Assembly (NCBI GenBank): GCA_016278615.1
Contig: JADQBM010000006.1
Location: 36,206 to 100,205 of the forward strand
DNA from: Clostridia bacterium
Lineage (GTDB): Bacteria; Bacillota; Clostridia; Peptostreptococcales; JAAYPU01
Direction: 5' to 3'
DNA: 64,000 nucleotides
Shown here: one piece after another, positions 23,695 to 41,964 of the stretch
Position numbering within the stretch: the first letter of the stretch is position 1
How the letters are laid out: every line of letters begins with the position of its first letter
Translations under genes and position numbers: made by a program
Notes under the pieces: generated by a model
What the model was told of the DNA's origin: nothing
Database searches by the model: none
What the model saw: the letters and a program-made list of their open reading frames with translations, nothing else

Positions 23695-23708
23695 TAAAAA
23701 CGAATAAA

Positions 23709-24740: not shown

Positions 24741-24758
24741 TGAGGAGGAAAATTAATT

Positions 24759-26376: not shown

Positions 26377-27653
26377 TGGGATTCATTTTATTTGGATTAT
26401 TTGCAGCTTTTATTTTTGTTAATATACCTATATCTATTTCCTTAGGATTATCGGCTATTATTACCATAATACTATTTGATTTTCCTTTAATAATTTTCCC
26501 TTCCGCCATGTATTCTGCTATAGGCAAATTTAGTTTGCTTGCCATACCTTTTTTTATTCTTGCTGGAGTTATTATGGAAAAAGCTGGGATATCAAAAAGA
26601 TTGATTCATTTTGCCAATGTATGTGTGGGGCATTATAAAGGCGGCTTAGCTATCGTAACTGTAATTGTGGCATGTTTTTTTGCGGCAATCTCAGGTTCTG
26701 GACCTGCTACAGTAGCGGCATTAGGTGCAATACTGATTCCTGCTATGGTCCATGAAGGTTATGATAAGGGAATGGCCTCGGCATTAATGGCTTCATCAGG
26801 AGGAATAGGAATCGTTATCCCACCAAGTATTGCTTTTGTCGTATATGGTGTATTAGCGGAAGTATCCATCGGTAAATTATTTATTGCCGGTATCATCCCA
26901 GGTCTTCTAATGGGATTATCTTTGATAATAGTCAGTTTGTTTATGCTTAGAAAGAATAAAAACTTAAAAAAGAGAGAAAAGGCTACATGGAAAGAAATAG
27001 GCAAAGCCTTTTTTGATGCGTTTTGGGGGCTTATGACGCCTATTATTATTTTAGGTGGTATTTACGGTGGATTTGTAACACCCACTGAAGCAGCTGGTGT
27101 TGCGGTAGTTTATGGATTATTAGTGGGTCTATTCATTTATAAAGAGATAAAAATAAGAGACTTATATAAATTATTAGTTGAGTCTTCTATAGCTTCAGCA
27201 ACCGTTATGTTTATTATTGCCAATGCCAGTGTGTTTGCATGGATACTTACAACAGGTCGGATAGCAAATAACATGGCTACCACACTAATGGATCTGACAA
27301 CCAGCAAAATCGGATTGCTATTATTGATGAATTTGATTTTCCTTATTGCTGGATGTTTTATAGATGCAATTTCTGCATTTTATATCTTAGTTCCTATATT
27401 GTTACCTGTTATACTCGCCATAGGTGTGGATCCCATATTATTTGGTGTTTTCATGACCGTAAATTTAGCCATAGGTTTAGCAACGCCTCCTGTGGGCATA
27501 GATCTATACGTGGCCTGTAACATCTCGAAAATACCATTAAAAGAAATTTCTTATAAAGTATTACCCTTTATTTTTGCCATGTTAATTGCATTACTATTAA
27601 TCACATTCGTTCCACAAATTTCACTATGGCTACCTGAATTTATGGGTATGTAA
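26376..27653 (+). CDS. TRAP transporter large permease (DctM)
   Basis: 425-aa polytopic protein, start overlaps the dctQ stop. Confidence 0.9.
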   Translation: MGFILFGLFAAFIFVNIPISISLGLSAIITIILFDFPLIIFPSAMYSAIGKFSLLAIPFFILAGVIMEKAGISKRLIHFANVCVGHYKGGLAIVTVIVACFFAAISGSGPATVAALGAILIPAMVHEGYDKGMASALMASSGGIGIVIPPSIAFVVYGVLAEVSIGKLFIAGIIPGLLMGLSLIIVSLFMLRKNKNLKKREKATWKEIGKAFFDAFWGLMTPIIILGGIYGGFVTPTEAAGVAVVYGLLVGLFIYKEIKIRDLYKLLVESSIASATVMFIIANASVFAWILTTGRIANNMATTLMDLTTSKIGLLLLMNLIFLIAGCFIDAISAFYILVPILLPVILAIGVDPILFGVFMTVNLAIGLATPPVGIDLYVACNISKIPLKEISYKVLPFIFAMLIALLLITFVPQISLWLPEFMGM

Positions 27654-27698
27654 TTTGGTTAAATGCATTAGCAAATCTTTAATATAAAGAGAGATAAA

Positions 27699-28631
27699 AT
27701 GATTAGTGGGATAAACAGCATACTGACAATTTTCATTATGGTAGGGGTAGGTTTTTTCTTTACAAAGAGGGGATGGTTCAATGATGAGATTGGCCAATTG
27801 TTTTCTCAGATTGTAATTAGAATTGGAATCCCTGCTATGGCAATCGTAAATATAAGCACAAGTTTGCAAAGGGGCACTTTATTTTCATCACTTCAATATG
27901 TTTTCATTGCTATGTTAAGCATGTTGGTTTTATTCGTGATATCCGCTTTTATTGCAAAATTTTTAAAGATTAATAAAGAAAAGAAAATGATTTTTATTCT
28001 CATTTTTACTTTTTCTAATAGTTTTTTTATTGGAATACCTGTCAATGTGGCCATATTTGGAGAAGATAGTTTGCTTTATGTTTTTCTTTTCTTCATGGCA
28101 AATAACATCACATTTTGGACATTGGGTGCTTATGCACTTGCAAATGCAAAAAATAAGAACAAAACCAATTTAAAGAGTTTTTTATCTAATGCAAAAAGAG
28201 CAATTACTCCCGGATTAATTGCAATATTAACGGGTTACTTAATTGTATTGATAGATATTAAATTACCCTATTTTTTATTTGAAGGCCTAAGATATTTAGG
28301 TAACTTATCCATTCCGCTATCCATGATTTTTATTGGAATCGATTTGGCTTTGACAAAAAAGAAAGATTTGACCATTGATACGGCAGCCGTTGTTGGACTT
28401 GTAGGAAGATTTGTAATCAGCCCTATAGTCGTTATCCTGATAATGATCCCTTTTGGAATATCAGGTCTGCCCTATAGTGTATTTATATTAGAAGCAGCTA
28501 TGCCAGCTCAGGCGAATACTGCAATAGCAGCCAAATATTATGATGTGGAGTCAGAATATGCGTCTGCAATGGTGGGATTATCCACTATTGTTAGTATGAT
28601 CGCCATTCCTATATTTGCACTATTACTATAA
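27699..28631 (+). CDS. AEC (auxin efflux carrier) family transporter
   Basis: 310-aa, 10-TM-type profile with a central KNKNK loop. Confidence 0.75.
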   Translation: MISGINSILTIFIMVGVGFFFTKRGWFNDEIGQLFSQIVIRIGIPAMAIVNISTSLQRGTLFSSLQYVFIAMLSMLVLFVISAFIAKFLKINKEKKMIFILIFTFSNSFFIGIPVNVAIFGEDSLLYVFLFFMANNITFWTLGAYALANAKNKNKTNLKSFLSNAKRAITPGLIAILTGYLIVLIDIKLPYFLFEGLRYLGNLSIPLSMIFIGIDLALTKKKDLTIDTAAVVGLVGRFVISPIVVILIMIPFGISGLPYSVFILEAAMPAQANTAIAAKYYDVESEYASAMVGLSTIVSMIAIPIFALLL

Positions 28632-28664
28632 GCTTTTCTCCCCTCATTTATATAAATTAATGCG

Positions 28665-28688
28665 ACTGCCCTTAATAAGGGCAGTTTT
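28665..28688 (+). terminator. intrinsic terminator
   Basis: ACTGCCCTTA-a-TAAGGGCAGT followed by TTTT. Confidence 0.8.
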
Positions 28689-28786
28689 GCATTGTAATCT
28701 AAATTTAAGAGAACTGATTTTCTCAGTTGCAAATGAGAAAAAATGTTTACAGTTTAATATAAAAGGTGTAAAATTACACTAAGGAG

Positions 28787-29242
28787 TTGATGCTTGATAT
28801 GAACAGAGAAGGGTTTATAAAAAAAGCAGATGAAAAGTTAAAAATGATACGAATTGAAAATGATTACACACAAGATAAAATGGCAGAAGCTTTGGGCACA
28901 TCAAAAAAAACGCTGATTCAAATTGAAAAGGGTAGGGCTTCTTTAGGATGGTCTGGAGCGGTAACCTTATGTACCATTTTTAAAAATAGCGAAGTCTTAG
29001 AAATGACCTTTGGGGGACCACCTCATGATGTGATACTTTTGTTGGCTTTTGACAATTATGAAAGCTACGATAAAACAATGGGTGGAAAAGTCTGGTGGAA
29101 AGATATAGAAAAAAGAGGCAAATACAAAGTGCAACAAAATATCATTACTCAACATTATAGGATTTTAGACAGTGTTGAAAGAAAAATCTGTTCCTCTTTT
29201 GATTACAAATATATTAAAAAAAGATTATTGGAACTTACTTAA
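28787..29242 (+). CDS. XRE-type HTH protein with uncharacterised C-terminal domain
   Basis: YTQDKMAEALGTSKKTLIQIEKG HTH; start ambiguous (28787/28790/28799). Confidence 0.55.
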   Translation: MMLDMNREGFIKKADEKLKMIRIENDYTQDKMAEALGTSKKTLIQIEKGRASLGWSGAVTLCTIFKNSEVLEMTFGGPPHDVILLLAFDNYESYDKTMGGKVWWKDIEKRGKYKVQQNIITQHYRILDSVERKICSSFDYKYIKKRLLELT

Positions 29243-29290
29243 AAGGTTACTTTAGAAATAAAATCATGAAGAATGCAACGAGGTAAAATA

Positions 29291-30271
29291 ATGTTGACTT
29301 TTATGAAAGCCTATATTAAATCAATGCGACTATATTACTCATTTATAACTGGTATTTCTGGATGGATTGGTATTGCATTTTATGAACATATTGCTACCTC
29401 TCCTTACCAAACAATCGAAGTCCTTCCATCAACTGAGAAAAAGGCAGTCATATTAATTATGTTATTTCTAAGCTGGGGAATCAACCAAATTATCAATGAT
29501 TATTTAGGGCTTAAAGAAGATAGAATTAATGCACCACAACGGCCTATGGTTACAGGAGAATTAGATTTGCACAAATCTTTATTGGTTTCTTTTTTATTAC
29601 TGACCATGACTTTTATAATTACATTCTTTTTATTGGAACCTCTGGCTTTGATTCCTTTAATACTCGGCATTTTATTAAATGTTTTATACGAACATGCAAA
29701 AGGGTATGGACTTTTAGGGAATATAGTATTTGGATTAATGATTTCAATGTGCGCGGTATTCGGATTTCTTGCAGCAGGGCCGACACAGTCTCCCTATTTT
29801 ACTGAAAGTCGTGTTTCAATTCTTCTTTTAGTCATTATACTCAATGGACTCATGACCTTTTACACTTACTTTAAAGACTATGAAGGGGATAAGGCTGCAG
29901 CTAAAAAAACCCTTGTAGTGAAATTTGGAATTGAAAGATCAAGAATTGTCGCAGTTATTTCATCTTTTATTCCTGCGGCTGCTTTTATACTGCTATATTC
30001 TAATGATTTTATTATGGCAAGAGTAAATACTATGTTTCTGATTTTAGCCGGATTAACACTTTTTTTAGAAATATGGACTGGATATCTTTTTTATAAAAAC
30101 CCTGAGGGGGAAAGAACTTATTATTCATTGGCTGTTAATTTTAGAGCTTGCACCTGTGGCCAGGCGACACTTATCGCTTTATTTAATACAGAACTTGCCA
30201 TGCTTTTATTCTTAGTTTCATATATATTTGTAGGATTATTATTTGATTTACATGCAAATCCAAAATCATAA
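29291..30271 (+). CDS. UbiA-family aromatic/lipid prenyltransferase
   Basis: NQIINDYLGLKEDRINAPQRP (NxxxDxxxD) and YFKDYEGD second Asp-rich motif; ~8-9 TM. Confidence 0.8.
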   Translation: MLTFMKAYIKSMRLYYSFITGISGWIGIAFYEHIATSPYQTIEVLPSTEKKAVILIMLFLSWGINQIINDYLGLKEDRINAPQRPMVTGELDLHKSLLVSFLLLTMTFIITFFLLEPLALIPLILGILLNVLYEHAKGYGLLGNIVFGLMISMCAVFGFLAAGPTQSPYFTESRVSILLLVIILNGLMTFYTYFKDYEGDKAAAKKTLVVKFGIERSRIVAVISSFIPAAAFILLYSNDFIMARVNTMFLILAGLTLFLEIWTGYLFYKNPEGERTYYSLAVNFRACTCGQATLIALFNTELAMLLFLVSYIFVGLLFDLHANPKS

Positions 30272-30314
30272 GATCTAAAGAGTTCATTAAGTTAGAATTA
30301 TTGGGAGTTTTAAA

Positions 30315-31517
30315 ATGAAAGTATTTAAGGCAAAAAAAATCGGAACATGTCTACTAAAAAACAGATTAATTCGTTCTGCAACCTTTGAAGGCATGTGTGA
30401 CTCAAATGGCTTTCCCCTACAGGCCTATGAAGAGTTATACACTAAGTTGGTAGCAGGAGGTGTAGGGGGTATTATTACTGGCTTTGCTTATGTTTCTCTA
30501 GAAGGAAAAGCCATGCAACCCGGTCAAGCAGGTATGGATTCCCAGTCAAAAATTCCCTACTTTAAGTCCATCACGGACAATGTCCACAAATATAATAGCA
30601 AAATTTTCATGCAATTGGCCCACACTGGCCGCCAGACCAGAAAAAAGGAAACCAAACAGGATGTTTGGGGCGTATCAAGAAAGAGATCCTTGTATTTTTT
30701 ACAAAGGCCAAAAGTATTAACGTCTTCTGAAATCTATACAATCATAAATCAGTTTGCACAATCCGCCTTATACGCAAAAATGGCGGGTTTTGATGGGGTA
30801 CAGTTACACGCCGCTCATGGATATCTGATTCATCAATTTATTTTACCATCCATTAACAATAGAAGAGACGAATTTGGGATACCAGAAGGTTCCAACATCG
30901 GCACAAGATTCTTAGAATTGGTTATTGACGCCATTAGGATTCAATGCGGAAATGACTTTCCGTTACTTGTAAAAATAAGTGGTGGCGTAGATTATTGTCA
31001 TCCATTTACCCCAGTGCAATTCAAAAACCTTATAGGTTTCTTGGATTCAAAAAAAGTGGATGCCATTGAAATTAGTTATGGGACTATGGATTATGCTCTA
31101 AGTATCTTTAGAGGTGAAATACCTAAGCAGACCATTTTAGAGCATAATCCTATTTATAAAACCAATCATCCTTTTAAAAAAGTAGTCTTTAACGCATTGA
31201 TTTATCCTTTTATGTCATTAAAAATAAAGTCCTTTACACCTCTTTATAATATTGAGTATGCTAAGTTGGCAAAAGAGATTACGAAGATTCCTATTATTTG
31301 TGTTGGCGGAGTTCGAAAAGGCCAAGAAATTATATCTTGTATTGAGAATAACTCTGTTGATTTCATGAGCTTATGCAGACCACTTATTTGCGAACCTGAT
31401 TTTATCGAAAAATTGAAAAAAGATGAAAATTATATTTCAAAATGCACAAATTGCAATGTATGTGCAATTATGTGTGATGCCTTAGAACAGACTAAGTGCT
31501 ATAGGAGGCTACTATGA
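30315..31517 (+). CDS. Old-Yellow-Enzyme-type NADH:flavin oxidoreductase with C-terminal Cys cluster
   Basis: [31 protein letters not shown] motifs; C-terminal [11 protein letters not shown]. Confidence 0.8.
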
Positions 31518-31762
31518 ATTTAGAAGAGCGCATTATCACAACATTAAAAAACAACATGGAACGACTCCAAGAGATAAATATAGAAAGCAAATTAAAAGAA
31601 GATCTTGCATTGGATTCATTTGATATATTGATGGTTATATCTGCATTAGAAGATGAATTTTCAATTACGATCAATGAAGAAGACTTTTCAGAGGTTGTTA
31701 CTGTAGGTGATATCGTAGACAGAATGAGAGCAGTAAATAAGAAAGATAAAGATAAAAGATAA
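31514..31762 (+). CDS. acyl carrier protein; C-terminal KKDKDKR tail encoded by the repeat tract
   Basis: 82 aa, [19 protein letters not shown] phosphopantetheine-Ser context; ATGA overlap with the upstream gene. Confidence 0.8.
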
Positions 31763-31808
31763 TAGTTTAGGATGATTTTGCAACTCTTGTAGCAAAATCT
31801 TCATTTTA
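31739..31808 (+). repeat. E3: solo heptamer-tract/hairpin arm inside the operon
   Basis: AAGAAAGATAAAGATAAAAGATAATAGTTTAGGAT, then GATTTTGC-aactcttgta-GCAAAATC, then TTCATTTT. Confidence 0.85.
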
Positions 31809-31846
31809 AACTTTTTGCTTTGAACCTGATAGTAAAGGAGAAATGT

Positions 31847-33022
31847 ATGGGTTTTGAGAGTTTTTATAAGAGATTTGATGTTGATGAAAGGGTTGCGAAT
31901 GTAGCCGGCTTTAATCCGTATTATATGGAAATCGACTCTGGATTAAATGAAAAGATATGGATGAATGGCAGACAAATCATTAATCTTGCTTCAAATAATT
32001 ACCTTGGCTTAGCAACAGATGAAAGGGTAAAGGAAGCCATTATTTCAGCAGTTGAAAAATATGGCGCATCTTTGTGTGGAACGCCCATATCAACGGGATA
32101 TGTTGATTTGTATAAAAGGCTGGAATACTCATTGTCAAATTTTGTTAGGCTTGAGGATACCATCATACTTCCTTCATGCTATCAAGGAAATAATGGATTA
32201 TTTGTTTCCATTGCAAAAAAGGAAGATCTTATCATTGTTGATCGCTTTGCACATTCCTCATTGATTCAAGGGATTAAGGCTGTTGGCTGTAAGATCAGAC
32301 CTTTTCTACATAATAATTTAGAACATCTTGAAGGTATTTTGAAACGCTCACAAGATTATAAGCAAATCTTTGTTGTTACGGAATCTGTATTCTCAACAGA
32401 TGGGGATATCTCACCCTTTAAGGAAATTATCGATCTATGTGAAAAATACAACGCCTTACCAATCATAGATGATTCCCATGGCATTGGTGTGTTGGGGAAT
32501 ACAGGAAAAGGCATCCTTGAAGAGGAAAACATTATTAACTTCAAAGGCATTTATACCGCTTCCCTTGGTAAGGCCCTGGCCAATTCGGGAGGGATGATAA
32601 GTGGTAAAAAAGAGATTATAAACTACCTGAAATATTACTGTCCTCATTTGGTTTATTCTACTTCACTTACACCCTCAATCTTGGCAGGTATAGAAGCCGT
32701 GTTAAAGATTGTATCCTCAGAATTTGAATCATTAAAAAATAAATTGTATTCAAATAAACAAATTCTATTTGCAAGTCTTATGGAGGCAGGATTTGAAACA
32801 ACTGAGTGTATTGCTCCAATTAATAGCATTAAAACACAGAGCAAAGAAAATACTTTTAAAACAGCAAAAAGCTTTTTTGAGAAGGGCATTCTTTCAACCC
32901 CTTTTATTGAACCCTCTGTTCCTGTAAACCAAGGCTGTATAAGACTCATTGCAGGGGCCAATCTGACTCAGTCTACTATTGAAGAAGCCTGTGAGATTAT
33001 AAAGAGTGTGAGGAAGACATGA
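31847..33022 (+). CDS. PLP-dependent alpha-oxoamine synthase family (Spt/BioF/Kbl-like), divergent
   Basis: NNYLGL, DDSHGIGVLG, PLP-lysine context ASLGKAL; AAAGGAG RBS before ATG 31847. Confidence 0.8.
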   Translation: MGFESFYKRFDVDERVANVAGFNPYYMEIDSGLNEKIWMNGRQIINLASNNYLGLATDERVKEAIISAVEKYGASLCGTPISTGYVDLYKRLEYSLSNFVRLEDTIILPSCYQGNNGLFVSIAKKEDLIIVDRFAHSSLIQGIKAVGCKIRPFLHNNLEHLEGILKRSQDYKQIFVVTESVFSTDGDISPFKEIIDLCEKYNALPIIDDSHGIGVLGNTGKGILEEENIINFKGIYTASLGKALANSGGMISGKKEIINYLKYYCPHLVYSTSLTPSILAGIEAVLKIVSSEFESLKNKLYSNKQILFASLMEAGFETTECIAPINSIKTQSKENTFKTAKSFFEKGILSTPFIEPSVPVNQGCIRLIAGANLTQSTIEEACEIIKSVRKT

Positions 33023-33999
33023 AATATTTTCTTATCTTGAACCCTGGTTCTAAGGGAGGAAAAAGCAGAAAAAAATTCAAAACGATACTGGATATCTTGG
33101 AAGAGAACAATATTTCTTATGATTACAAGATAACCACAACCCTTGAAGATGCCACTGTTTTTTCAGCAGAAGCCAATCAAAAAGGTTATGATGTCATTGT
33201 ATCTGTAGGTGGTGACGGAACGATTAATAGAGTCATCAATGGATTTTTTGATCCTTATGGCAAAAGAATATCCCATTCAAAATTAGGCGTCATCTACACG
33301 GGAACAAGCCCTGATTTCTGCAAAAGCTATCATGTTCCTTTAAAAATCGAAAATGCAATGGGTGTATTGATTTCGGCCAAAAGCAAAAAAATTCAGATTG
33401 GCAAAATAAGTCATGCTTTACATTTTGAAAAAATCTTAGAGGGTCAAGCTTTGCCAATTAATTACCACCCCATGAAAACCAGCTACTTTGCATGCTGTGC
33501 CAATATTGGTATAGGTGCTTCACTTGCTAAGAATGCAAATAGTGGCATCAGAAAGTGGTTGGGGGATTACGGTGGAACCTTTATTTCTCTTATTAAAGCA
33601 TTAAAAAAATACGAAGCTTCAAGTTTTACAGTAACCTTAGATGGAAAAAAGCAAATCCTCCAAAAAGTTTATAATATAGGAGTAGGCCGAACGACTTTTA
33701 TTGCCTCTGGAATAAAAGTTAAAAACAATTTACAACCAGGTGATGGTCTTTTTTATAATCTTATAATTAAAAACATAAGTTTTTTTAATTGCCTTGGTAT
33801 ATTAAAAAAAATATATAGTGGAAAAGATATTATCAATGGACCTATTATTGCATTGAAATATGCAAAAGTCATAGAAATTTACGGGTGCAATAAGAATCCT
33901 GAGTTGGAGTTTGACGGTGATGCAAGTGGTTATCTTCCATGCCTGATAGAATCAACTCGAGACCCATTGGACTTAATTTGCGAGGTGCAAAATGAGTAA
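33019..33999 (+). CDS. DAGK-catalytic-domain lipid kinase (YegS/BmrU-like)
   Basis: ILNPGSKGGK, VSVGGDGTINRVINGF; ATGA overlap with the upstream gene. Confidence 0.8.
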   Translation: MKYFLILNPGSKGGKSRKKFKTILDILEENNISYDYKITTTLEDATVFSAEANQKGYDVIVSVGGDGTINRVINGFFDPYGKRISHSKLGVIYTGTSPDFCKSYHVPLKIENAMGVLISAKSKKIQIGKISHALHFEKILEGQALPINYHPMKTSYFACCANIGIGASLAKNANSGIRKWLGDYGGTFISLIKALKKYEASSFTVTLDGKKQILQKVYNIGVGRTTFIASGIKVKNNLQPGDGLFYNLIIKNISFFNCLGILKKIYSGKDIINGPIIALKYAKVIEIYGCNKNPELEFDGDASGYLPCLIESTRDPLDLICEVQNE

Positions 34000-34999
34000 A
34001 GAGAAAGAAATGATTGAAATCATCAACAAACACATGCCGAAAAGTCCAACACAGTTGAATAAATTGTTTGAATCAGATGCTGAAATCATCGATTTTCAAA
34101 GCAAAAGACTTGCCTATAGCATGGATGAATTTTCCGAAGAAGATTTATTATCAGATGAAGACGCCTATACCCTTGGGTGGAATATGGCAGTGGGGTGTAT
34201 AAGTGATATCTTGGCCAGCGGCGGAAATCCTAAGTATTATGCCCATAGTCTTGCAGTTAATCGCACATGGACAAAGGAATATATTGAAAAGCTTTCAATG
34301 GGAATAGGCAAGGCTCTAGAAGAAGCGGGAATGTCCTTTATTGGGGGAGATTTTAGTATTGCAAAGACTTGGCGATATACAGGCTCCATAATCGGTGAAC
34401 TTATAGGAAATCCCTTATTAAGGCGTGGAGCAAAAGTTGGAGATCTAATATTTATTTCCGGCAGAATAGGCGCTGGAAATATTGATGCCGCTCTTAAGCT
34501 TTATTGGGATAACCCAAGAGACATTAAAATACCTAAACAGTTTAAGAGTCGGTTTAAACTTCGAAAAAATGAGGCGTTATTAATCAAAGAATTTGCTCAT
34601 TGTTGTATAGATACAAGTGATGGCGTTTTAAGTGCACTTAAGGCAGTATCTGACATCAATGAAACTGGCTATAAAGTGAGTTATTTACCCTATAAAAAGA
34701 GGGGCATCTTCCTTGCGAAATTACTAAATCTGCCCAAAGAATTGTTATTTTTTGGGGGATGTGGCGAGTACGAGCTACTTTTTACTATTAGCAAAGAGGC
34801 ATCTGAAGATTTTTTAATTCAATCCAAGAAAAGAAATTTTAAATTTTATAAAATTGGCGAAATAAAAGAAAAAGACATTCAGTTATTGCATACTAAAGAG
34901 AAAGAAATTGATTTAAATTTATATGATTTATGTGCAAGAGACTATGAAAACCCCAAAGATTATTTGAAGGATGCGATTCATTTTTTGCATGTTAAATAA
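33992..34999 (+). CDS. PurM/AIR-synthase-superfamily protein (ThiL-like ATP-dependent enzyme)
   Basis: SDAEIID...YSMDEF...ISDILASGGNP...FIGGD... resembles ThiL/PurM N- and C-domains; 8-nt overlap with the kinase gene. Confidence 0.65.
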   Translation: MSKEKEMIEIINKHMPKSPTQLNKLFESDAEIIDFQSKRLAYSMDEFSEEDLLSDEDAYTLGWNMAVGCISDILASGGNPKYYAHSLAVNRTWTKEYIEKLSMGIGKALEEAGMSFIGGDFSIAKTWRYTGSIIGELIGNPLLRRGAKVGDLIFISGRIGAGNIDAALKLYWDNPRDIKIPKQFKSRFKLRKNEALLIKEFAHCCIDTSDGVLSALKAVSDINETGYKVSYLPYKKRGIFLAKLLNLPKELLFFGGCGEYELLFTISKEASEDFLIQSKKRNFKFYKIGEIKEKDIQLLHTKEKEIDLNLYDLCARDYENPKDYLKDAIHFLHVK

Positions 35000-35016
35000 G
35001 AAAGATGGCGTTTATT

Positions 35017-36273
35017 ATGAAGCGAAGAGTTGTTATTACAGGAATAGGTCCTGCAACAGCTATAGGGATCGGGAAAGAAGAATTATTCCAAAGTGTCTTG
35101 GAAATGAAAACATGCATTTTAAAGATACCAGATTGTTATGAAAAGAATTATACTTTTAAGTCTCGTTATTTTGTTCCCAAGCCTGTGTTTTCCTTAGTGG
35201 ATTATGGTATTCCTAAATCCTCTGAATATATTATGGAGGAGATCTCACGACTTTCAGTTCTGTGTACAAGGTTGGCTCTGGAAGATGCAAAGTTTAAAAT
35301 CAAGAAAAGGGGTCAATTTTTTGAAGTGGTGGATTGCCCAAAGAACTCTATGACGATACTTGGCATAGGGATGAGCAGTCTTCAGACAGCTTTTGATTCT
35401 TATACAGCTCATAATACAGAAAATAGCAAGAATCGTTTTAATCGGATGGTGATTCCCATGTTGATGCCAAACTCAGCATCGTCTTGGGTATCTATTGTAT
35501 ATGGTACAAATGGTTTTAATTATACGGTAAACGCTGCCTGTGCATCTGGAAGTCTGGCAATAGGTGAGGCTTATTCCAATATCCTAAATGGCAAATGTGA
35601 TGTGGCCATAACCGGTGGGGTTGAAGCTCTGGCTGAAAAAGAGGGTGCTGTTATGAGAGGCTTTGACATGCTCACAACTCTTACAAAATCAAAAGATGGC
35701 AAACCTTTACCTTTTTCAAAACAACGAAGCGGATTTTTATTTAACGAGGGCGCAGGATGCGTTCTGATCCTTGAAGAACTCCAAAATGCTCGCAAGAGAG
35801 GCGCTGATATATACGCGGAAATAGTGGGATATGAAAGTTCCAGTGATTCACATCATATTGTTCAGATGGAACCTTCAGGACAAAACATTGCTATGCTCTT
35901 TGAAAAGCTAACTAAGGGAATAAAGATTGATTATTTAAACGCCCATGGAACAGCAACCCTTTCCAATGATGAAATTGAAGCTAAAATCATTCAAGATTTG
36001 TTTGGAGACAAAAGCACCCAACCCACTATAAATTCAACAAAAGGTATTTTAGGACACAGCATCGGTGCAAACGGAGCCATAGAGGCTGCCGTAACAGCTA
36101 TGTCAATAAAAAATGCCTTAATACATGGGAATCTAACAACAGACCCAATGGACAACTTAAATCTTCCCATGACAACCATTGAAGCTAAAATCAAATATGC
36201 TATTTCCGCTTCATATGGCTTTGGGGGACATAATGTCTTATTATTATTGAAGAGGTTTGAAGAAAATGAATAA
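35017..36273 (+). CDS. beta-ketoacyl-ACP synthase (KAS I/II family)
   Basis: MKRRVVITGIG, active-site AACASGS, NAHGTAT and GHSIGANG His motifs. Confidence 0.85.
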   Translation: MKRRVVITGIGPATAIGIGKEELFQSVLEMKTCILKIPDCYEKNYTFKSRYFVPKPVFSLVDYGIPKSSEYIMEEISRLSVLCTRLALEDAKFKIKKRGQFFEVVDCPKNSMTILGIGMSSLQTAFDSYTAHNTENSKNRFNRMVIPMLMPNSASSWVSIVYGTNGFNYTVNAACASGSLAIGEAYSNILNGKCDVAITGGVEALAEKEGAVMRGFDMLTTLTKSKDGKPLPFSKQRSGFLFNEGAGCVLILEELQNARKRGADIYAEIVGYESSSDSHHIVQMEPSGQNIAMLFEKLTKGIKIDYLNAHGTATLSNDEIEAKIIQDLFGDKSTQPTINSTKGILGHSIGANGAIEAAVTAMSIKNALIHGNLTTDPMDNLNLPMTTIEAKIKYAISASYGFGGHNVLLLLKRFEENE

Positions 36274-37297
36274 TGTAATGATTACAGGTGCCACTGGCTT
36301 TATTGGCAGTCACATTGTCCGAATTTTTTGTGAGAATCAGATTCATGTGGGTTGTTTAATGAGAGAAACCAGCAATAGAAAGAACCTAAATGGACTGCCA
36401 ATAGAAATAAAGATTGGCGATATAAGAGAGGGCGAAGGGATAGAAACTGCATTTCAAGGATACGATTGTGTCATTCATAATGCTGCAAAAGCAGAGGACT
36501 GGGGACATTATGATGAATTTTTTCAAACAAATGTGATGGGAACATTAAATGTATTAAGAGCATCTGTAAAAGCAGGTGTTAAGAATATCATTTTAACTGC
36601 TTCTAATTCCGTTTATGGAGAAGAAAACAGTTTTATTGTAAAAGATGAGAATTCACCCTACAAGTCTCACTACAAATATTTCGGAGATGGTGTTTTCCCG
36701 TGCAAATTGAATTATTATCGCGATACCAAGGCCTTGGCAAAAAAAGAAGCCATAAAATTTGCTAAAGAACATGATTTGAACCTTACGATCATAGAGCCTG
36801 TTTGGGTTTATGGCGAAAGGGAATTCAATACTGGGTTTTATGAGTATATTAAGACAGCTGGAACCGGCATTGTGTTTTTGCCAGGATCGAAAAAAAATAA
36901 ATTTCATGTTGTGTATGCAGGGGATCTCGCCAGGGCCTACCTTGCTGCGTATAAGAAACACTTGGTAGGCATCAACTGTATACTTATTGGAAATGAAAAA
37001 GCTGAAAGCATGGACAAAATCTATAGACTGTTTTGCTTAGAAGCTGGAATTAGAAAGCCTTTCAATATCCCAAAGATCCTAGTATATCCAATAGCATTTA
37101 AACTAGAGTTACTCTACACGATATTTCGCGCTAAGAAACCACCCCTTCTAACCCGGGGAAGGGTCAATATGTTTTATGATAATATCGAGTTCTCAGTTAA
37201 AAAAGCAGAGGAACTTCTGGGGTTTACAAACCAATATACTTTAGAGGAAGGAATCAAAAAAACAGTTGCTTGGTATAAGGAGCAGAAGCTAATTTGA
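36266..37297 (+). CDS. NAD-dependent epimerase/dehydratase-family reductase
   Basis: ITGATGFIGSH Rossmann, YYRDTKALAKK (YxxxK); 8-nt overlap with KAS. Confidence 0.8.
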   Translation: MNNVMITGATGFIGSHIVRIFCENQIHVGCLMRETSNRKNLNGLPIEIKIGDIREGEGIETAFQGYDCVIHNAAKAEDWGHYDEFFQTNVMGTLNVLRASVKAGVKNIILTASNSVYGEENSFIVKDENSPYKSHYKYFGDGVFPCKLNYYRDTKALAKKEAIKFAKEHDLNLTIIEPVWVYGEREFNTGFYEYIKTAGTGIVFLPGSKKNKFHVVYAGDLARAYLAAYKKHLVGINCILIGNEKAESMDKIYRLFCLEAGIRKPFNIPKILVYPIAFKLELLYTIFRAKKPPLLTRGRVNMFYDNIEFSVKKAEELLGFTNQYTLEEGIKKTVAWYKEQKLI

Positions 37298-37323
37298 TAC
37301 AAGTGATAGGAAACTGGAAAATG

Positions 37324-37622
37324 AAGATAAAAGATAATAGATAATAGATAACAGTTAAGGATGATTTTGTTCCAAAATCTTCGTTTTAATTTAAAAGAGT
37401 AAGAAGATGCGTAGAGACGACCCTTGCGGTTGTCCGTATGAGATAAAAGAGTATTTGTCATCGCGAGGAGTATAGCGACGTGGCGATCTATCATAAAGCA
37501 AAATAAAGGTAACTGTAGGGGCTGGTCCTGTGCCTGCCCGAACAAGATTCAGGTTTATTATTCAAATGAAGATTTTGTGTAACAAAATCCTTCCTAAACT
37601 ATTATCTGTTATCTATTACCTA
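37324..37622. repeat. E4: inverted pair of heptamer-tract/hairpin arms enclosing a ~170-nt GC-richer cargo (MITE-like)
   Basis: Left arm 37324-37388 (hairpin GATTTTG-ttc-CAAAATC 37363-37379). Right arm 37563-37622 is its reverse complement (hairpin 37571-37589). Interior has several hairpins and no credible ORF. Confidence 0.85.
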
Positions 37623-37636
37623 TAAGGGAGATTATT

Positions 37637-38932
37637 ATGATAAAAACAAATAATGTCACTGGGATTCATAAAAATTTATTTAATTTGAAATTGAAAATCT
37701 TTGTTTTCTTTTATTTCATTCCTGAGTTTATTAAAGGAAATATTTCATTAAAAAGATATACGCTCTTTTTAAAAAGACTTTTACTTTTCCTTGCAAAGAT
37801 GCAACACAATAAATTTGTAAAAATCGGAAGCAAAACTCGAATGAATTTATATGTCCCGGGTTTTGCTTCAAAAGCATTTCTCACGGCCTGTAAGAAATTT
37901 TTACAATTTGAAAATCAAATGCCTTGTACAACGGTTTTAATATCCATTACTTCTTCTTGTACATATCACTGTAGCCATTGTTATCAAAAACTCGATAAAG
38001 GCAAAGATGTGGATTTAAACTTATTGATTCCAATTGTGAAAAAACTTCAAGACAGGGGCATTGCTTTCTTCAATATTGAAGGAGGGGAGCCATTTTTAGT
38101 CTATGACAGATTAAAAAGTATCTGCACATCCATTGATGAGAGATCAGAAATCTGGATAAACTCAACGGGTGTTGGAATTACCATAGAGAGACTAATGGAA
38201 TTGAAAAAAATGAATGTTACTGCTATCATGTTTTCTTTACATAGTTCTCAGCGGGATATTTTTAATGATTTTATGGGGGATGATTCTGCGTGGGATACAC
38301 TTGAATCCGCTATTCATCTATGTCATGAAGCAGGCTTAGGAGTTACCTTTAATTCATGTCTTATGAAAGATGATTTTTACAACGGGAATTTTGAAAAAAT
38401 CATGGAAACTACTAAAAAATATAACGCCTCCTTGGTTCAAATCATAAAGCCAAAGCCTTCCGGCGGATGGCTTGAAAAAGAAGATATAGAATTTACTCAA
38501 ATGGATATAGACGATATTAAGAAAAAGGTTCTTCGATACAATTCCCAGCATAAGTTTAAAGAATACCCTTCGATTTTTGCTCAGATTATTGAAGAGGATA
38601 AAGATGTTTTTGGCTGCACAGCGGGTGGAATAGACAGGTTTTATATCAATGCAAAAGGAGACATTCAGCCATGTGAGTTTCTAAACATATCTTTTGGGAA
38701 CATAAGAGAAGAAGATTTCGAAACCATCTATAATAGAATGAGAAATTCTTTTGAGTGGGGAGGGGATTGCATGATTTGTGAGAAATATGCTAAGGAAGTT
38801 CGTGAAATCTTTAAAGATAATCATTTATCATCCTTACCCCTTTCTTCAACACTATCTGAAAAGATTTATGGTTCATGGGATAGAGGTGACAAGACGGAAT
38901 TGTATGAAAAGCTGGAAGAGATTAAAGGATAG
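37637..38932 (+). CDS. radical SAM enzyme with extra C-terminal Cys motifs
   Basis: CTYHCSHCYQ cluster motif; C-terminal CTAGG...QPCEF and CMICEKY cysteines. Confidence 0.8.
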   Translation: MIKTNNVTGIHKNLFNLKLKIFVFFYFIPEFIKGNISLKRYTLFLKRLLLFLAKMQHNKFVKIGSKTRMNLYVPGFASKAFLTACKKFLQFENQMPCTTVLISITSSCTYHCSHCYQKLDKGKDVDLNLLIPIVKKLQDRGIAFFNIEGGEPFLVYDRLKSICTSIDERSEIWINSTGVGITIERLMELKKMNVTAIMFSLHSSQRDIFNDFMGDDSAWDTLESAIHLCHEAGLGVTFNSCLMKDDFYNGNFEKIMETTKKYNASLVQIIKPKPSGGWLEKEDIEFTQMDIDDIKKKVLRYNSQHKFKEYPSIFAQIIEEDKDVFGCTAGGIDRFYINAKGDIQPCEFLNISFGNIREEDFETIYNRMRNSFEWGGDCMICEKYAKEVREIFKDNHLSSLPLSSTLSEKIYGSWDRGDKTELYEKLEEIKG

Positions 38933-39040
38933 ATATCAGAAAATAGATAACAGATAATAGATAAGGGATAGATAAGAGATAACAGATAATAGATAAGAGT
39001 TGAGGAGGATTTTGCATGAAATAGGCAAAATCTTCTTTTG
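38931..39040 (+). repeat. E5: solo heptamer-tract/hairpin arm
   Basis: ~10 AGATAAN-type units, AGTTGAGG, GATTTTGC-atgaaatag-GCAAAATC (39008-39032), TTCTTTTG. Confidence 0.85.
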
Positions 39041-39117
39041 TTTAGATTAATACCTTTTGTTTAGGGTAATCTAATAAGTGAGAAGTTGTAAAAATAACAA
39101 CGTAAAGGAGAATTTCT

Positions 39118-39579
39118 ATGAGTGCAATTGCAGTAGGTGTAGACGCACCGAACTTTACTGTAAAGGATCAGAATAACAATAATATAAGCTTATCAGATTT
39201 AAGAGGAAAAAAGGTTCTCTTATCTTGGCATCCTTTGGCCTGGACTCCAGTTTGTACCGATCAAATGCGAGGATTAGAAACCAATTTTCAAGAATTTCTT
39301 AATCTAAACACAGTACCCCTAGGTTTTAGTGTAGACTCTCAGCCTTGCAAAGCAGCATGGGCTACAGCACTACAAATTCATTATGTTAGTCTTCCGGCTG
39401 ACTTTTGGCCTCATGGTAAAGTTGCACAGGAATATGGCATATTTAACGACAAGATAGGGGTATCTGAGCGTGCCAATATCATTATAGACGAAAATGGCAA
39501 GGTAAAATGGGTGAAAGTTTACCCACCGGGACAACTTCCGGATATTAATGAGGTTTTGCAGGTTTTGGGAGAAGCGTAA
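39118..39579 (+). CDS. thiol peroxidase / peroxiredoxin (AhpC/TSA-Bcp-like)
   Basis: WHPLAWTPVCTDQ peroxidatic Cys context, 153 aa. Confidence 0.8.
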   Translation: MSAIAVGVDAPNFTVKDQNNNNISLSDLRGKKVLLSWHPLAWTPVCTDQMRGLETNFQEFLNLNTVPLGFSVDSQPCKAAWATALQIHYVSLPADFWPHGKVAQEYGIFNDKIGVSERANIIIDENGKVKWVKVYPPGQLPDINEVLQVLGEA

Positions 39580-39580
39580 A

Positions 39581-39720
39581 GAAGAAAGATTAAAAAGATA
39601 GATAAAAGATTAAAAAGATAGATAAAAGATAAGAAGATAGATAAGAGAAAAAGATAGATAAGAGATAACAGATAATAGTTAAGGTTGATTTTGCAACAAC
39701 TGCTAGCAAAATCTTCATTG
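39581..39720 (+). repeat. E6: longest solo arm, with a 22-nt higher-order duplication
   Basis: AGATTAAAAAGATAGATAAAAG occurs twice in tandem, then AGATAAN units, AGTTAAGG, GATTTTGC-aacaactgcta-GCAAAATC (39687-39713), TTCATTG. Confidence 0.85.
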
Positions 39721-39734
39721 ATTTATAAGTTCAG

Positions 39735-39951
39735 TGAGGTAGAGTAAAATCTATCTCGTTTTTTTATCTTAAAGATACTCCAGGGACATTCCTTAAAAAG
39801 ATAGACCCTTAAGCGAAAGGTGTGTCCCTTTACCTTTAATTTGAGTCCTTTAATTGAAATTTACTGCAAAACGGGCGCAAACCTGCTAATAAATACATTA
39901 AACATCTCTTACGTGTTGGAACTTAGAATGTATGAGGAACAGGGTGCAAAA
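39735..39951. repeat. X1: mosaic repeat copy (modules A+B)
   Basis: Module A 39735-39838 with 13-bp hairpin AGGGACATTCCTT/AAGGTGTGTCCCT (39781-39828); module B 39858-39951. Confidence 0.8.
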
Positions 39952-40097
39952 GTGGGGGAGATACTTGGTTTAAAGCGAAAAGATATATATCGTTACATTA
40001 TTTTACATTAATTGTTAATTTTATGCTATTATAATATTAAATAATCTTTATTGTCACAACAAATTTGTTGTGATAATATGTATAAAAGAGAGGTAAG

Positions 40098-40439
40098 ATG
40101 AAAATACATGCTTATACTACTAAAGGTGGTAAGAATGAAATATTCGGTTACTTAAATAGTCTACCAAATAAGGAAAAAGCTGAAGGCTATACAATTATTT
40201 CAATGTTAGAAGAAAAAGGTATGGAATTACTTAACATTTTGAATACACGGCAACTTCAAGGTAAGATTTGGGAAATTAAATTCTATAGACATAATAGAAT
40301 AATGTATATTTTAATAGATGAAGAAAATATTTTTTTACTACATGCTTGTAAGAAGCAAAAAAACAAAGCAGAAAAGAAAAATATAAATATAGCCGTTCAA
40401 AGAGCGAAGGAGATTTCACCTACTGTTTCTGCAGAATAA
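40098..40439 (+). CDS. higB: type II toxin, RelE/HigB-like (Gp49/DUF891-type)
   Basis: 113 aa; KIWEIKF...RIMY...LLHACKKQKNK pattern; toxin-first order with an XRE antitoxin gene downstream. Confidence 0.7.
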   Translation: MKIHAYTTKGGKNEIFGYLNSLPNKEKAEGYTIISMLEEKGMELLNILNTRQLQGKIWEIKFYRHNRIMYILIDEENIFLLHACKKQKNKAEKKNINIAVQRAKEISPTVSAE

Positions 40440-40476
40440 GTCCATGAGTAAACATGTAAGGAAAGGAGAAAAACAA

Positions 40477-40770
40477 ATGCCTTTTGAGCGTATTAATATT
40501 AAAGAATCCATTTCCCAGGAATGTGGAAAGAATGAAGAGTTCAGAGAAGCTTACAATGAAATGATGGAAGAATATAAATTAATTAGTTATGTGGTAAAAG
40601 CTAGAAAAGCAAAAGGATTAACCCAAGAAGCCTTAGCAAAAGCAATCGGTGTTAAACAACAAGAAATTTCCAGATTCGAGAATAGAAAACATATGCCGAC
40701 TTTATCTAATTTAACAAAAATTTTAGATGGTTTAGATTTGCAATTAAGCATTACTCCTAAAAAAAGATAG
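40477..40770 (+). CDS. higA: XRE-family HTH antitoxin (HigA-like)
   Basis: LTQEALAKAIGVKQQEISRFENRK HTH; AAAGGAG RBS before ATG 40477. Confidence 0.75.
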   Translation: MPFERINIKESISQECGKNEEFREAYNEMMEEYKLISYVVKARKAKGLTQEALAKAIGVKQQEISRFENRKHMPTLSNLTKILDGLDLQLSITPKKR

Positions 40771-40807
40771 TGTTTTGTAAAACAAAATAAGAAACGTTGC
40801 TTTTCTT

Positions 40808-41181
40808 GAGGTGGGTTAAAAATCTATCTCATTTTTTTATCTTAAGGATCGCCCAGGGACATTCCTTGGAAAGATAGACCCTTAAGCGAAAGGTGTGTCC
40901 CTGTACCTTAAATCTCTTCTTGTTTTGCAAACGAACCCTTAAGATAAGGTTAAGCTTCAGCATAGACGCGGTGCGCTAAGTCCTTGCAAATTGTGATGTA
41001 GGGACCGGTTCTGTAGTAAATAAGATACCCTAGGGACATTCCTTAGAAAGATAGACCTCTAAGGGAAAGGTGTGTCCCTTTACCTTTATATTTACTGCAA
41101 AACAAGCGCAAACCTGCTAATAAATACATTGAACATCTCTTACGTATTGAAACTTAAAATGTATGAGAACAGGGTGCAAAA
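40808..41181. repeat. X2: mosaic repeat copy (modules A+C+A'+B)
   Basis: A 40808-40910, C 40914-41021, partial A 41024-41086 inserted in the C/B hairpin loop, B 41090-41181. Confidence 0.8.
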
Positions 41182-41292
41182 TGAAAAGCAAGAATACTTA
41201 AGAGAGGTAGCCCCCAGGCATTCTAAATCAACTTTTGCACACAAAATAGTGAGTTGGATGTAATAGTTCAAGGGGGAGACGTTCAATCTATT

Positions 41293-41516
41293 TCTTCTTG
41301 TTTTGCAAACGAACCCTTAAGGTAGGGTTAAGCTTCAGCATAGACGCGGTGCGCTAAATCCTTTCAACATATGATGTAGGGACCGGTTTTGCAGTAAATG
41401 ATATTTAAGTTCTTTAAAGGAAATTTACTGCAAAACAGATGCAAACCTGCGAATAAATAGATTAAACATCTCTTACGTATTGGAACTTAGAATGTATTAG
41501 AAACAGGGTGCAAAAG
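41293..41516. repeat. X3: mosaic repeat copy (modules C+B), the cleanest ~225-nt unit
   Basis: C 41293-41399, B 41423-41516. 14-bp IR GTTTTGCAGTAAAT/ATTTACTGCAAAAC; possible closing helix TTTTGCA (41301-07)/TGCAAAA (41509-15). Confidence 0.8.
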
Positions 41517-41563
41517 TTAAATTTAAACAAAAAGATTATAGGATGAACCTATAATCTTTTTCT

Positions 41564-41606
41564 TGGTGCCGAAGGCGGGACTTGAAGACGGGCGGCCGTC
41601 TGCCGA
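41564..41606 (-). pseudogene. tRNA-Leu 3'-end fragment (internally deleted copy)
   Basis: TGGTGCCGAAGGCGGGACTTGAA is identical to the first 23 nt of the intact tRNA at 41750; preceded by a similar terminator hairpin. Confidence 0.6.
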
Positions 41607-41749
41607 TCTTTTGTGTCATGTTTGTATTGATGATGTTGTTTATTTGATTTCTATATAGCATTTGAAAGTGTCCGCTTCTTTACGCGGGTTCTTCGCACCC
41701 ACCTTTCAGACAATTAAAAAATCATAGGATAACCCTATGATTTTTTAAT

Positions 41750-41836
41750 TGGTGCCGAAGGCGGGACTTGAACCCGCACGTTGTTACCAACACTGGATTT
41801 TGAGTCCAGCGCGTCTGCCAATTCCACCACTTCGGC
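41750..41836 (-). tRNA. tRNA-Leu (anticodon CAA), CCA encoded
   Basis: Reverse complement reads GCCGAAGTGGTGGAATTGGCAGACGCGCTGGACTCAAAATCCAG...GCGGGTTCAAGTCCCGCCTTCGGCACCA; anticodon loop CTCAAAA. Confidence 0.9.
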
Positions 41837-41964
41837 AAGTCACTTAACAATAATAGCATATTCCATATAAATATTCAAGAAAAATTAAATTCTATATTAT
41901 GTAAAAAAATAAAGGAATTTGAATTTTTTAGGAGAATATAAATAATTCATAAGGGGGGATAGAA

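Follow-up and report, generated by a model that had tools for sequence, protein, structure and literature searches.

A conserved nine-gene operon of anaerobic bacteria and the amino-lipid pathway that it may encode

The stretch analysed here, which we call the window, comprises 64,000 nucleotides from the genome of a Clostridia bacterium (assembly GCA_016278615.1, contig JADQBM010000006.1, positions 36,206 to 100,205 of the forward strand). Between positions 29291 and 38932 of the window lie nine genes on one strand, with the gene of a regulator directly upstream of them. ORF calls confirmed all nine at the coordinates given in the original prediction, and a Pfam search agreed with the order and the families that it had claimed:

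28787..29242, plus strand: XRE-family helix-turn-helix regulator (Pfam matches HTH_19, HTH_3 and HTH_31)
29291..30271, plus strand: UbiA-superfamily integral-membrane transferase, similar to digeranylgeranylglyceryl phosphate synthase (DGGGPS) and chlorophyll synthase (PF01040, 94.5 bits)
30315..31517, plus strand: FMN-dependent ene-reductase of the old yellow enzyme (OYE) family with a C-terminal 4Fe-4S motif (PF00724, 155.6 bits)
31514..31762, plus strand: dedicated acyl carrier protein (ACP) of 82 aa (PF00550)
31847..33022, plus strand: alpha-oxoamine synthase (AOS), dependent on pyridoxal phosphate (PF00155, 149 bits)
33019..33999, plus strand: soluble lipid kinase of the DAGK_cat/YegS family, here the DAGK-family kinase (PF00781 and PF19279)
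33992..34999, plus strand: ThiL-like ATP-dependent enzyme of the PurM superfamily (PF00586)
35005..36273, plus strand: FabF-like elongating beta-ketoacyl-ACP synthase (KAS) (PF00109 and PF02801)
36266..37297, plus strand: ketoreductase of the extended short-chain dehydrogenase/reductase (SDR) type, similar to HpnA, OleD and 3beta-HSD (PF01370 and PF01073)
37637..38932, plus strand: radical S-adenosylmethionine enzyme (rSAM) with an N-terminal helical extension and a C-terminal SPASM/twitch-type domain (PF04055 and PF13186)

All of the proposed Pfam families were recovered save PF02769, which does not match the ThiL-like protein of the window, though the match is precomputed for many of its orthologues.

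Three of the ORFs open ahead of the start that is listed. The UbiA ORF opens at 29273, and the predicted start at 29291 is the better one because a GAGGT ribosome-binding site belongs to it. The AOS ORF opens at a TTG (31820), and the ATG at 31847, which has an AAGGAG site, is probably the start; the SDR ORF opens at 36257 and has an ATG at 36266. The four overlapping junctions that had been reported follow from these coordinates, namely 4 nt at 31514-31517, 4 nt at 33019-33022, 8 nt at 33992-33999 and, provided that the SDR begins at its ATG, 8 nt at 36266-36273. Junctions in related loci are likewise mostly 20 nt or shorter or overlapping, and the junction of the kinase and ThiL-like genes has a median of -8 nt over 49 loci, the same overlap as in the window. 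In Firmicutes the operon probably begins with the XRE gene, which was found directly upstream of UbiA as predicted. The whole is one operon, of ten genes in Firmicutes and of nine elsewhere.

A genome scan with the ThiL-like protein returned eight loci (Desulfosporosinus, Peptococcaceae, Desulfitobacteriaceae and Anaerovorax), and in those clear of contig ends the XRE gene and the nine genes follow one another as they do in the window, with 52-80% identity and different flanks. A metagenome scan contributed 80 more loci. The nine proteins were mapped onto all loci, and 31 loci were left once duplicates and truncated contigs had been removed. The expectation that gene order would be conserved in relatives was borne out: all nine genes stand in the window's order in 19 of the 31, and the hosts are anaerobes of at least seven phylum-level groups. 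Contig look-ups placed the cluster in a Spirochaetes and a Bacteroidia metagenome-assembled genome (MAG), and the complete nine genes in a Cloacimonetes MAG and in one labelled 'Proteobacteria'; further carriers, going by the source name, are Omnitrophota, Halanaerobiales, Dehalobacterium, Aureabacteria and Delongbacteria. An anaerobic spore-former had been thought an unusual host; an anaerobic Firmicute is in fact typical of this cluster. Cultured and genome-sequenced carriers (Desulfosporosinus orientis DSM 765, D. youngiae, D. fructosivorans and Petroclostridium sp. X23) make the question of its product directly testable.

Across the 31 loci the ThiL-like gene is always present, followed by the SDR and rSAM genes (29 each), AOS (28), UbiA and the kinase (27 each), KAS (25) and OYE (23). 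The ACP was detected in 24, a count that is too low, since a gap of ACP size remains wherever the gene was scored as missing. Some loci are instead arranged as ThiL-KAS-SDR-rSAM-UbiA-OYE-ACP-AOS-DAGK, an order that results from the first when two blocks are circularly permuted. The XRE gene stands upstream of UbiA in all Firmicutes-type loci (12 of the 31, 64-79% identity) and is missing in the other phyla. In the flanks of related loci no gene beyond the nine recurs, and the gene set is thus self-contained; the immediate flanking genes of the window (up1, up2 and Prx) have no match in related loci. The catalytic motifs of all nine proteins are invariant in 35-83 orthologues per family, which predicts nine active enzymes under purifying selection. 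The nine products are intact enzymes of the superfamilies listed, inherited together as one unit.

Fusions tell of more intimate links. In two loci from two samples (L061 and L062, 99% identical) the AOS and the kinase form a single ORF with a linker of about 50 aa. The SDR and rSAM genes form a single ORF in one complete cluster (L097) and in L092, and since the two versions are 66% identical this fusion is conserved between species. No further fusion architecture appeared among the top 120 homologues of UbiA, the ThiL-like protein or the rSAM. L092 was also considered as an informative variant lacking the AOS and was rejected, being a decayed copy with a truncated UbiA.

Some loci depart further from the common plan. 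A distant mini-cluster (L091:10001-16375, on an 859-kb marine contig, and L075:206-5043), which may be a sister pathway, joins a ThiL-like gene (40% identity), an AOS (31-36%), a DAGK-family kinase and a UbiA to a classical short-chain SDR and a B12-binding rSAM similar to HpnJ and ladderane-lipid enzymes; it has no ACP, KAS or OYE. As it fills the SDR and rSAM roles with non-orthologous enzymes, the functional association appears to outlive the individual genes. L036 has two ThiL-like copies in opposite orientation (1625-2620 and about 6164, the latter on the minus strand), both 47% identical to that of the window, so that the cluster may be present there twice, head to head. In a peat metagenome (L054:8306-12721, and L055) a protein of 1,471 aa with two BcrAD/BadFG domains and a DUF2229 is encoded between the ThiL-like gene and the KAS. 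We take this architecture to be that of the plasmalogen synthase PlsA or its ether-lipid relatives, and it hints at a membrane-lipid context.

For the placement of each protein within its superfamily we used the curated HMM cutoffs of NCBIfam together with pairwise identities, and scores are quoted below as score/cutoff in bits. None of the nine proteins reaches any curated NCBIfam cutoff. The housekeeping names that automated annotation gives to the members might lead one to see here a chance juxtaposition of genes for biotin (BioF/BioB), thiamine (ThiL), fatty acid (FabF/ACP) and quinone (UbiA) synthesis. This has virtually no probability left; with no member at a housekeeping cutoff, an order kept across phyla, overlapping junctions and fusions, it is already refuted.

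The AOS is divergent and lies outside BioF and Kbl, as had been proposed. It falls below the cutoffs for BioF (287/426), Kbl (283/460 and 243/493), CqsA (209/428) and ALAS (181/339), and below all three models of the serine palmitoyltransferase Spt (NF047600, 269/640; NF047599, 221/500; NF047603, 163/670). In a plasmid collection it is at most 33% identical to the proteins annotated as Kbl, HemA or BioF, the three labels compared. Its matches in the PDB are nearly tied, with 203 bits for the Sphingobacterium serine palmitoyltransferase (SPT) versus 196 bits for Kbl. Residues H145, D217, H220 and K251 are invariant across orthologues. The neighbours, too, belong to no known biotin, threonine or fatty-acid pathway, in keeping with the original prediction: none of them reaches a cutoff, the locus has no BioA or BioD, the rSAM has no specific BioB match, and there is no tdh pairing, the Tdh-like gene some 7 kb upstream being in a different operon.

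Bacterial sphingolipid loci of the Caulobacter type combine Spt, a dedicated ACP, an acyl-ACP synthetase, the ceramide synthase bCerS, the reductase CerR and a ceramide kinase. The present cluster resembles them in having an AOS with a dedicated ACP, an epimerase-family ketoreductase and a DAGK-family kinase, with a ligase in variant loci; the reductase and the kinase are likened to CerR and ceramide kinase at the superfamily level only (Epimerase/3Beta_HSD and DAGK_cat/YegS_C). By analogy, the outcome is likely to be akin as well, that is, a phosphorylated long-chain amino-alcohol backbone. The sphingolipid-like core of the original prediction therefore stands at the level of superfamilies and not beyond, as no member passes a sphingolipid-specific model. 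Unlike the Caulobacter-type loci, the cluster has its AOS outside curated Spt and lacks a ceramide synthase; UbiA, the ThiL-like enzyme and the rSAM are obligatory here, KAS and the Fe-S OYE are usual, and the hosts are strict anaerobes, Firmicutes among them. That ceramide synthase and acyl-ACP synthetase are missing from the window had been noted correctly: neither the nine proteins nor any recurrent flanking gene has an acyltransferase domain, and a ligase of the acyl-ACP synthetase type occurs in the variant loci L014 and L084 only.

One might still suppose that ordinary ceramides are made, with the ceramide synthase gene at some other place in the genome. Four of the Caulobacter classes are indeed present (AOS, dedicated ACP, epimerase-family reductase and DAGK-family kinase), and a bacterial SPT is the top PDB match of the AOS. 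We consider it very improbable in view of the distance of the AOS from all three Spt models and of the UbiA, ThiL-like and rSAM genes, which are as strictly conserved as the AOS yet useless to classical ceramide synthesis; moreover, no gene of the bCerS type lies in or near any locus.

The ACP gene lies directly upstream of the AOS and encodes an invariant phosphopantetheine attachment site (D34-S35); all ACP models of NCBIfam are below cutoff for it. The KAS is below the cutoff for the housekeeping KAS II (FabF, 297/494) and keeps an invariant triad (C179/H314/H351). Certain loci have an AMP-binding fatty-acid ligase instead of the KAS or in addition to it. The Spirochaete locus has neither KAS nor OYE and encodes a long-chain fatty-acid ligase of 642 aa, along with an enoyl-CoA hydratase, an ApbA-type reductase and a second SDR, while in L084 an Aas-type fatty acid-[ACP] ligase domain (501 bits) lies 2.4 kb upstream. 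Because such ligases replace or accompany the KAS, the ACP would carry a long fatty acyl chain, and because they can stand in for it, the KAS would be one of two loading routes.

The trio of KAS, carrier protein and AOS is also known from the MBC branch of prodigiosin biosynthesis (PigJ, PigH and a carrier), and the alpha-hydroxyketone synthases CqsA and LqsA offer a related case, with amino-enone intermediates known from CqsA chemistry. On this pattern the KAS would provide a beta-ketoacyl-ACP that the AOS condenses with an amino acid, giving a cyclised hydroxymethyl-pyrrole or an alpha-hydroxyketone; the hydroxymethyl group would be pyrophosphorylated, and UbiA would then couple or prenylate the product into a diffusible signal or specialised metabolite. 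A dedicated XRE regulator leading the Firmicutes operon would suit such a product, and so would the patchy distribution over many phyla with non-conserved flanks, which is typical of mobile biosynthetic clusters; hydroxymethyl-heteroaryl diphosphates are, besides, classic coupling electrophiles (HMP-PP for thiamine, F1-PP for methanofuran). We nevertheless regard it as improbable. The KAS is dispensable, missing from 6 of the 31 loci, with long-chain fatty-acid ligases as substitutes; the kinase is of a lipid-kinase family and UbiA is an integral membrane enzyme; and the scores are far below the family models, the CqsA score being less than half its cutoff and the PigJ model giving 70 bits only. 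The lipid kinase, UbiA, ThiL-like enzyme and rSAM have no counterpart in the prodigiosin and CqsA systems.

Two consecutive genes encode the candidate kinases of the pathway. The DAGK-family kinase falls short of the TIGR00147 model (100.7/118.65), has S. aureus DgkB as its nearest structure and keeps an invariant GGDGT motif (residues 64-68). The ThiL-like protein scores 139.7/184.15 against the ThiL model, and its AlphaFold model (pLDDT 83.5) superposes best on A. aeolicus ThiL (TM 0.72/0.79). Its ThiL-type ligands (D29, D45, D72, D120, R144 and D207-x-S209-D210) are invariant, and in a profile alignment the MDISDG of ThiL falls on the IDTSDG of this family, with the Mg/ATP ligands and the catalytic segment aligned. 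An exhaustive search showed the family to be broad, with 125 representative clusters at E <= 1e-30, and ten sampled members score 110-163, all below the ThiL cutoff. By sequence, the protein is a member of a ThiL-like paralogue family and not ThiL itself; together with the structural model, this makes it a putative phosphomonoester kinase.

UbiA is the most conserved member of the cluster (62-87% identity across the top 120 homologues). Its top NCBIfam matches are to a prenyltransferase model (87/269) and to DGGGPS (72/296), with other DGGGPS models at 62/353 and 29/278 and BchG/ChlG at about 61 bits; the closest PDB entry is the DGGGPS of M. jannaschii (6m31). The two Asp-rich motifs do not vary among 41 orthologues (N75-D76...E82-D83...N86xP88xR90-P91 and K201-D202xxG205-D206), and the first of them, N-D-Y-L-x-x-x-E-D-R-I-N-x-P-x-R-P, resembles the DGGGPS/ChlG type. 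Judged by these scores, the protein is DGGGPS-like, yet outside curated DGGGPS. It shares with the archaeal enzyme the membrane-embedded fold and both motifs, and a lipid phosphate is a plausible partner; it differs in its scores (72-87 bits versus cutoffs of 269-353) and in having no linked geranylgeranylglyceryl phosphate (GGGP) synthase, glycerol-1-phosphate dehydrogenase or polyprenyl synthase. No GGGP synthase or PcrB gene was found in or beside any locus examined, and no prenyl-diphosphate synthase in or near about 45 loci.

In Cloacimonetes, a validated DGGGPS adjoins a GGGP synthase and a polyprenyl synthase (PMC7852524). As the cluster copy of Cloacimonetes has neither gene beside it, the cluster UbiA and the validated enzyme are distinct paralogues. 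Coleman et al. remarked that for many bacterial 'DGGGPS orthologues' there is no known use (PMC6431249), and some of these may belong to this cluster. Public databases label the UbiA as 'geranylgeranylglycerol-phosphate geranylgeranyltransferase' or 'ubiquinone biosynthesis protein UbiA' (P0431, P0459, P0466 and others) and the ThiL-like protein as 'thiamine-monophosphate kinase' (P0003, P0080 and others); since both are below the curated cutoffs, these labels are probably wrong. One should keep in mind that DGGGPS mislabelling can inflate the count of 'archaeal-type lipid genes' in bacteria in surveys of the lipid divide.

If UbiA does what its relatives do, the product would be a prenylated sphingoid phosphate. 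A sphinganine-like base would arise from the AOS and SDR and be turned into its 1-phosphate by the DAGK-type kinase; UbiA would add an isoprenoid from the prenyl diphosphate pool of the cell to the amine or the 3-hydroxyl, the prenyl chain replacing ceramide synthase and giving a two-tailed isoprenoid-sphingoid phospholipid; and the ThiL-like enzyme would then make a diphosphate head group or an activated intermediate. The best matches of UbiA are O-prenyltransferases acting on amphipathic acceptors, with the motif to go with them, and sphingoid 1-phosphate closely resembles GGGP in structure. No N-acyltransferase is encoded in the cluster, which means that a second chain must come from elsewhere, and the PlsA-type protein of L054 and L055 hints at a membrane-lipid setting. 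Against this stand the enone-reducing OYE that always adjoins UbiA, for which prenylation has no role, the weak role left to the universally conserved ThiL-like enzyme, the lack of a linked prenyl-diphosphate synthase, and the UbiA scores far below DGGGPS cutoffs. We think this chemistry unlikely, while taking it as the main competitor of the reading that we prefer.

The OYE bears on this question. Its structural neighbours are OYEs of the YqjM/TOYE class and the N-terminal domain of FadH, and its HAAHGY motif for enone binding and proton donation is intact (H165, H168 and Y170, all invariant). The CxxCxxCxxxC tail reported originally was located at C377/C380/C383/C387 and is invariant in 42 orthologues. 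The protein resembles the Fe-S OYEs of the FadH/BaiCD type in its FMN TIM barrel, its His/His/Tyr enone site and this tail; unlike them, it has no FAD or NAD(P)H domains and scores 124-163 bits versus cutoffs of 793-825. It ends at residue 400, after the 4Fe-4S motif, and models of 640 aa match over their first 260 or so positions only. As those domains are wanting after the 4Fe-4S motif, its electrons would come from an external donor. Wherever the OYE gene is present it directly follows UbiA. Its active-site residues mark it as a probable ene-reductase for conjugated C=C bonds rather than for isolated prenyl double bonds. A geranylgeranyl-type prenyl reductase was considered and rejected on account of the canonical activated-alkene site, and the original pairing of the OYE, as reductase partner, with a UbiA prenyltransferase is for the same reason unlikely.

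The SDR scores 149/368 against HpnA and 118-120/580 against OleD, with invariant GxxGxxG and Y154xxxK158. The rSAM is 59-74% identical across phyla; its best NCBIfam score is 86/500, and its match to PF13186 (SPASM) is weak at 29.4 bits. The CX3CX2C motif (C108/C112/C115) is invariant, as are C327, C346 and C381, and C378 is present in the consensus; this C-terminal pattern suggests a single auxiliary cluster. With its AlphaFold model (pTM 0.80) a fold search found generic rSAM cores only (viperin, SkfB and anSME, TM about 0.4), and among NirJ, AhbD, PqqE, SkfB, MoaA, viperin and GDGT-MAS there was no cutoff reached and no specific structural match. A tail-coupling role like that of tetraether synthase was dropped, as no tetraether synthase is in the Foldseek top 50.

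Taken together, the best explanation overall is a self-contained pathway to a lipid, associated with the membrane, that has a long-chain alpha-amino-ketone or amino-alcohol as its backbone, a reading that we hold tentatively, at somewhat less than an even chance. A fatty acyl group would be brought onto the ACP, by KAS elongation with malonyl-ACP or, in some lineages, by a long-chain fatty-acid/ACP ligase. The AOS would condense the acyl-ACP with an amino acid and release CO2; serine is the most plausible, since the DAGK step requires a primary hydroxyl, the group that lipid kinases of this family phosphorylate. The kinase would then phosphorylate the primary hydroxyl of the AOS product, on which it probably acts, given that the two enzymes are a single ORF in two assemblies. 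A further phosphate would come from the ThiL-like enzyme, in the way that ThiL acts on thiamine phosphate, and the resulting lipid diphosphate would serve as the substrate of UbiA, whose Asp-rich Mg sites would expel pyrophosphate. The neighbouring keto/enol or amino group could stabilise the cation, leading to a C1-substituted product or a 2-amino-enone. The OYE would reduce the conjugated double bond and the SDR the 3-ketone, and the rSAM would make a final radical modification. The original suggestion of an amino-lipid gains support from the ligases found in place of or beside the KAS and from the AOS-kinase fusion; the product itself we infer.

That UbiA takes a lipid diphosphate as its diphosphate substrate is, by analogy, a possibility to which we give slightly less than half of our belief. 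To our knowledge, every characterised enzyme of the UbiA superfamily binds a diphosphate through the Asp-rich motifs, and the cluster never holds a prenyl-diphosphate synthase; both facts favour a diphosphate made within the pathway. A further reason is that the sequence from alcohol to monophosphate to diphosphate to displacement recurs in thiamine synthesis (ThiD/ThiL-ThiE), in methanofuran synthesis (MfnE/MfnF) and in phytol salvage, where VTE5 and VTE6 feed the UbiA-family enzymes VTE2 and ChlG. Pyrophosphate loss beside a ketone or enol would, in addition, give an enone for the OYE. The cluster is like these systems in placing two consecutive kinases beside a diphosphate-consuming transferase, the second kinase having the ThiL fold and its catalytic residues; it is unlike them in its DAGK-type first kinase, its presumed amino-lipid substrate and its DGGGPS-like UbiA, and it shares no orthologues with them. 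A salvage of free prenol for UbiA by the two kinases was also weighed, and rejected because the AOS-kinase fusion ties the kinase to the AOS product.

Several points weigh against this pathway. The second to the seventh steps are drawn from families, fusions and chemical plausibility. We know of no UbiA enzyme that uses an amino-lipid diphosphate, and the closest relatives of this one (DGGGPS and chlorophyll synthase) use ordinary C20 prenyl diphosphates. The ThiL-like protein does not meet the ThiL cutoff, its C-terminal part does not align with ThiL, SelD and HypE are structurally almost as close to its model as A. aeolicus ThiL, and PurM-fold enzymes also do other ATP-dependent chemistry. 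The OYE is missing from some otherwise complete loci (the L014 group, L016 and L061), which means that its step is not universal, and the fold search gave no lead to the role of the rSAM.

The cluster appears as a widespread, uncharacterised lipid-type pathway of anaerobes, with a combination of enzymes that is not in any known pathway. Full-text literature searches, including work on Black Sea sphingolipids, on euxinic lipid producers, on how phospholipid genes originated and on the DGGGPS of Cloacimonetes, found no description of it and no characterised cluster with this gene set, which agrees with the original view that it matches no characterised pathway. Whether it embodies a new lipid logic, in which a fatty amino-ketone is turned into a lipid diphosphate by two kinases and then used by UbiA as electrophile, yielding a new class of membrane lipid or a lipid conjugate in strict anaerobes of at least seven phyla, we consider doubtful. 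If true, it would extend the chemistry of the UbiA, PurM/ThiL and alpha-oxoamine synthase superfamilies, provide the first diphosphate donor in the UbiA superfamily that is neither prenyl nor sugar, and mean that a sphingolipid-like backbone is made in Firmicutes. The product would possibly be among the unassigned amino- and phospholipids of anoxic sediments, and the cluster could serve as a genetic marker in metagenomes of peat, sediment, groundwater and digesters, where orphan bacterial lipids are used as proxies.

The operon of the window is set among copies of a host-specific repeat family, in which tandem AGATAAN heptamers are followed by a hairpin of GATTTTGC...GCAAAATC. The window holds 30 pattern matches where 0.05 are expected, at 2949-3168, 10252-10281, 31750-31800, 37325-37623, 38938-39037 and 39620-39725, as single copies or inverted pairs in intergenic spacers. 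The elements E3 to E5, which had been described as interrupting and bounding the operon, are real: their AGATAAN units lie at 31750-31800, where the copy occupies the ACP-AOS spacer, at 37325-37369 and 37585-37623, and at 38938-39037. Two of the repeat features call for annotation:

37325..37623, no strand assigned: host-specific inverted-repeat insertion (MITE/REP-like) between the SDR and rSAM genes, with (AGATAAN)n arms at 37325-37369 and 37585-37623
38938..39045, plus strand: repeat unit containing a 14-bp hairpin (fold -15.8 kcal/mol, z = -4.05) and a U-run, the hairpin being followed by UUUUGUUU

The first of these, an insertion of about 290 nt, has a predicted RNA fold of -97.7 kcal/mol (z = -5.6); relatives have some 13 nt at this junction and no such insertion. 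It need not inactivate the rSAM, since that gene retains its own AAGGGAG ribosome-binding site. The same junction may be a recurrent site of insertion, as L044:13377-14027 has an IS200-type Y1 transposase there. The hairpin of the second feature, placed after the rSAM gene, is probably the terminator of the operon. A search of Rfam returned no riboswitch or known RNA in 27000-42000, the repeat elements included, and promoter and terminator scans did no better than on shuffled sequence.

Further upstream, what looks like a separate catabolic operon occupies 15475-25790: a sigma-54 activator (PrdR/DhaR-like) is followed by a 2-oxoacid dehydrogenase complex (E1 alpha, E1 beta, E2 and E3), an SDR, an L-threonine 3-dehydrogenase just short of its threshold (370/380 bits) and a TRAP transporter. 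On the other side, three to four larger repeat copies (95-115 nt, 73-91% identical) at 39746-41520 surround a Gp49-like/HTH_3 gene pair (40098-40770) that looks like a toxin-antitoxin system of the HigB/HigA type, and the two together may be the remnant of a mobile element beside the operon. After this pair come a tRNA-Leu(caa) on the minus strand (41750-41836) and a ComEA-like protein (41965-42753). A SpoIVB peptidase at 43715-45037 scores 488 bits, above its cutoff, and the host of this window (34% GC) is on that account an endospore former.

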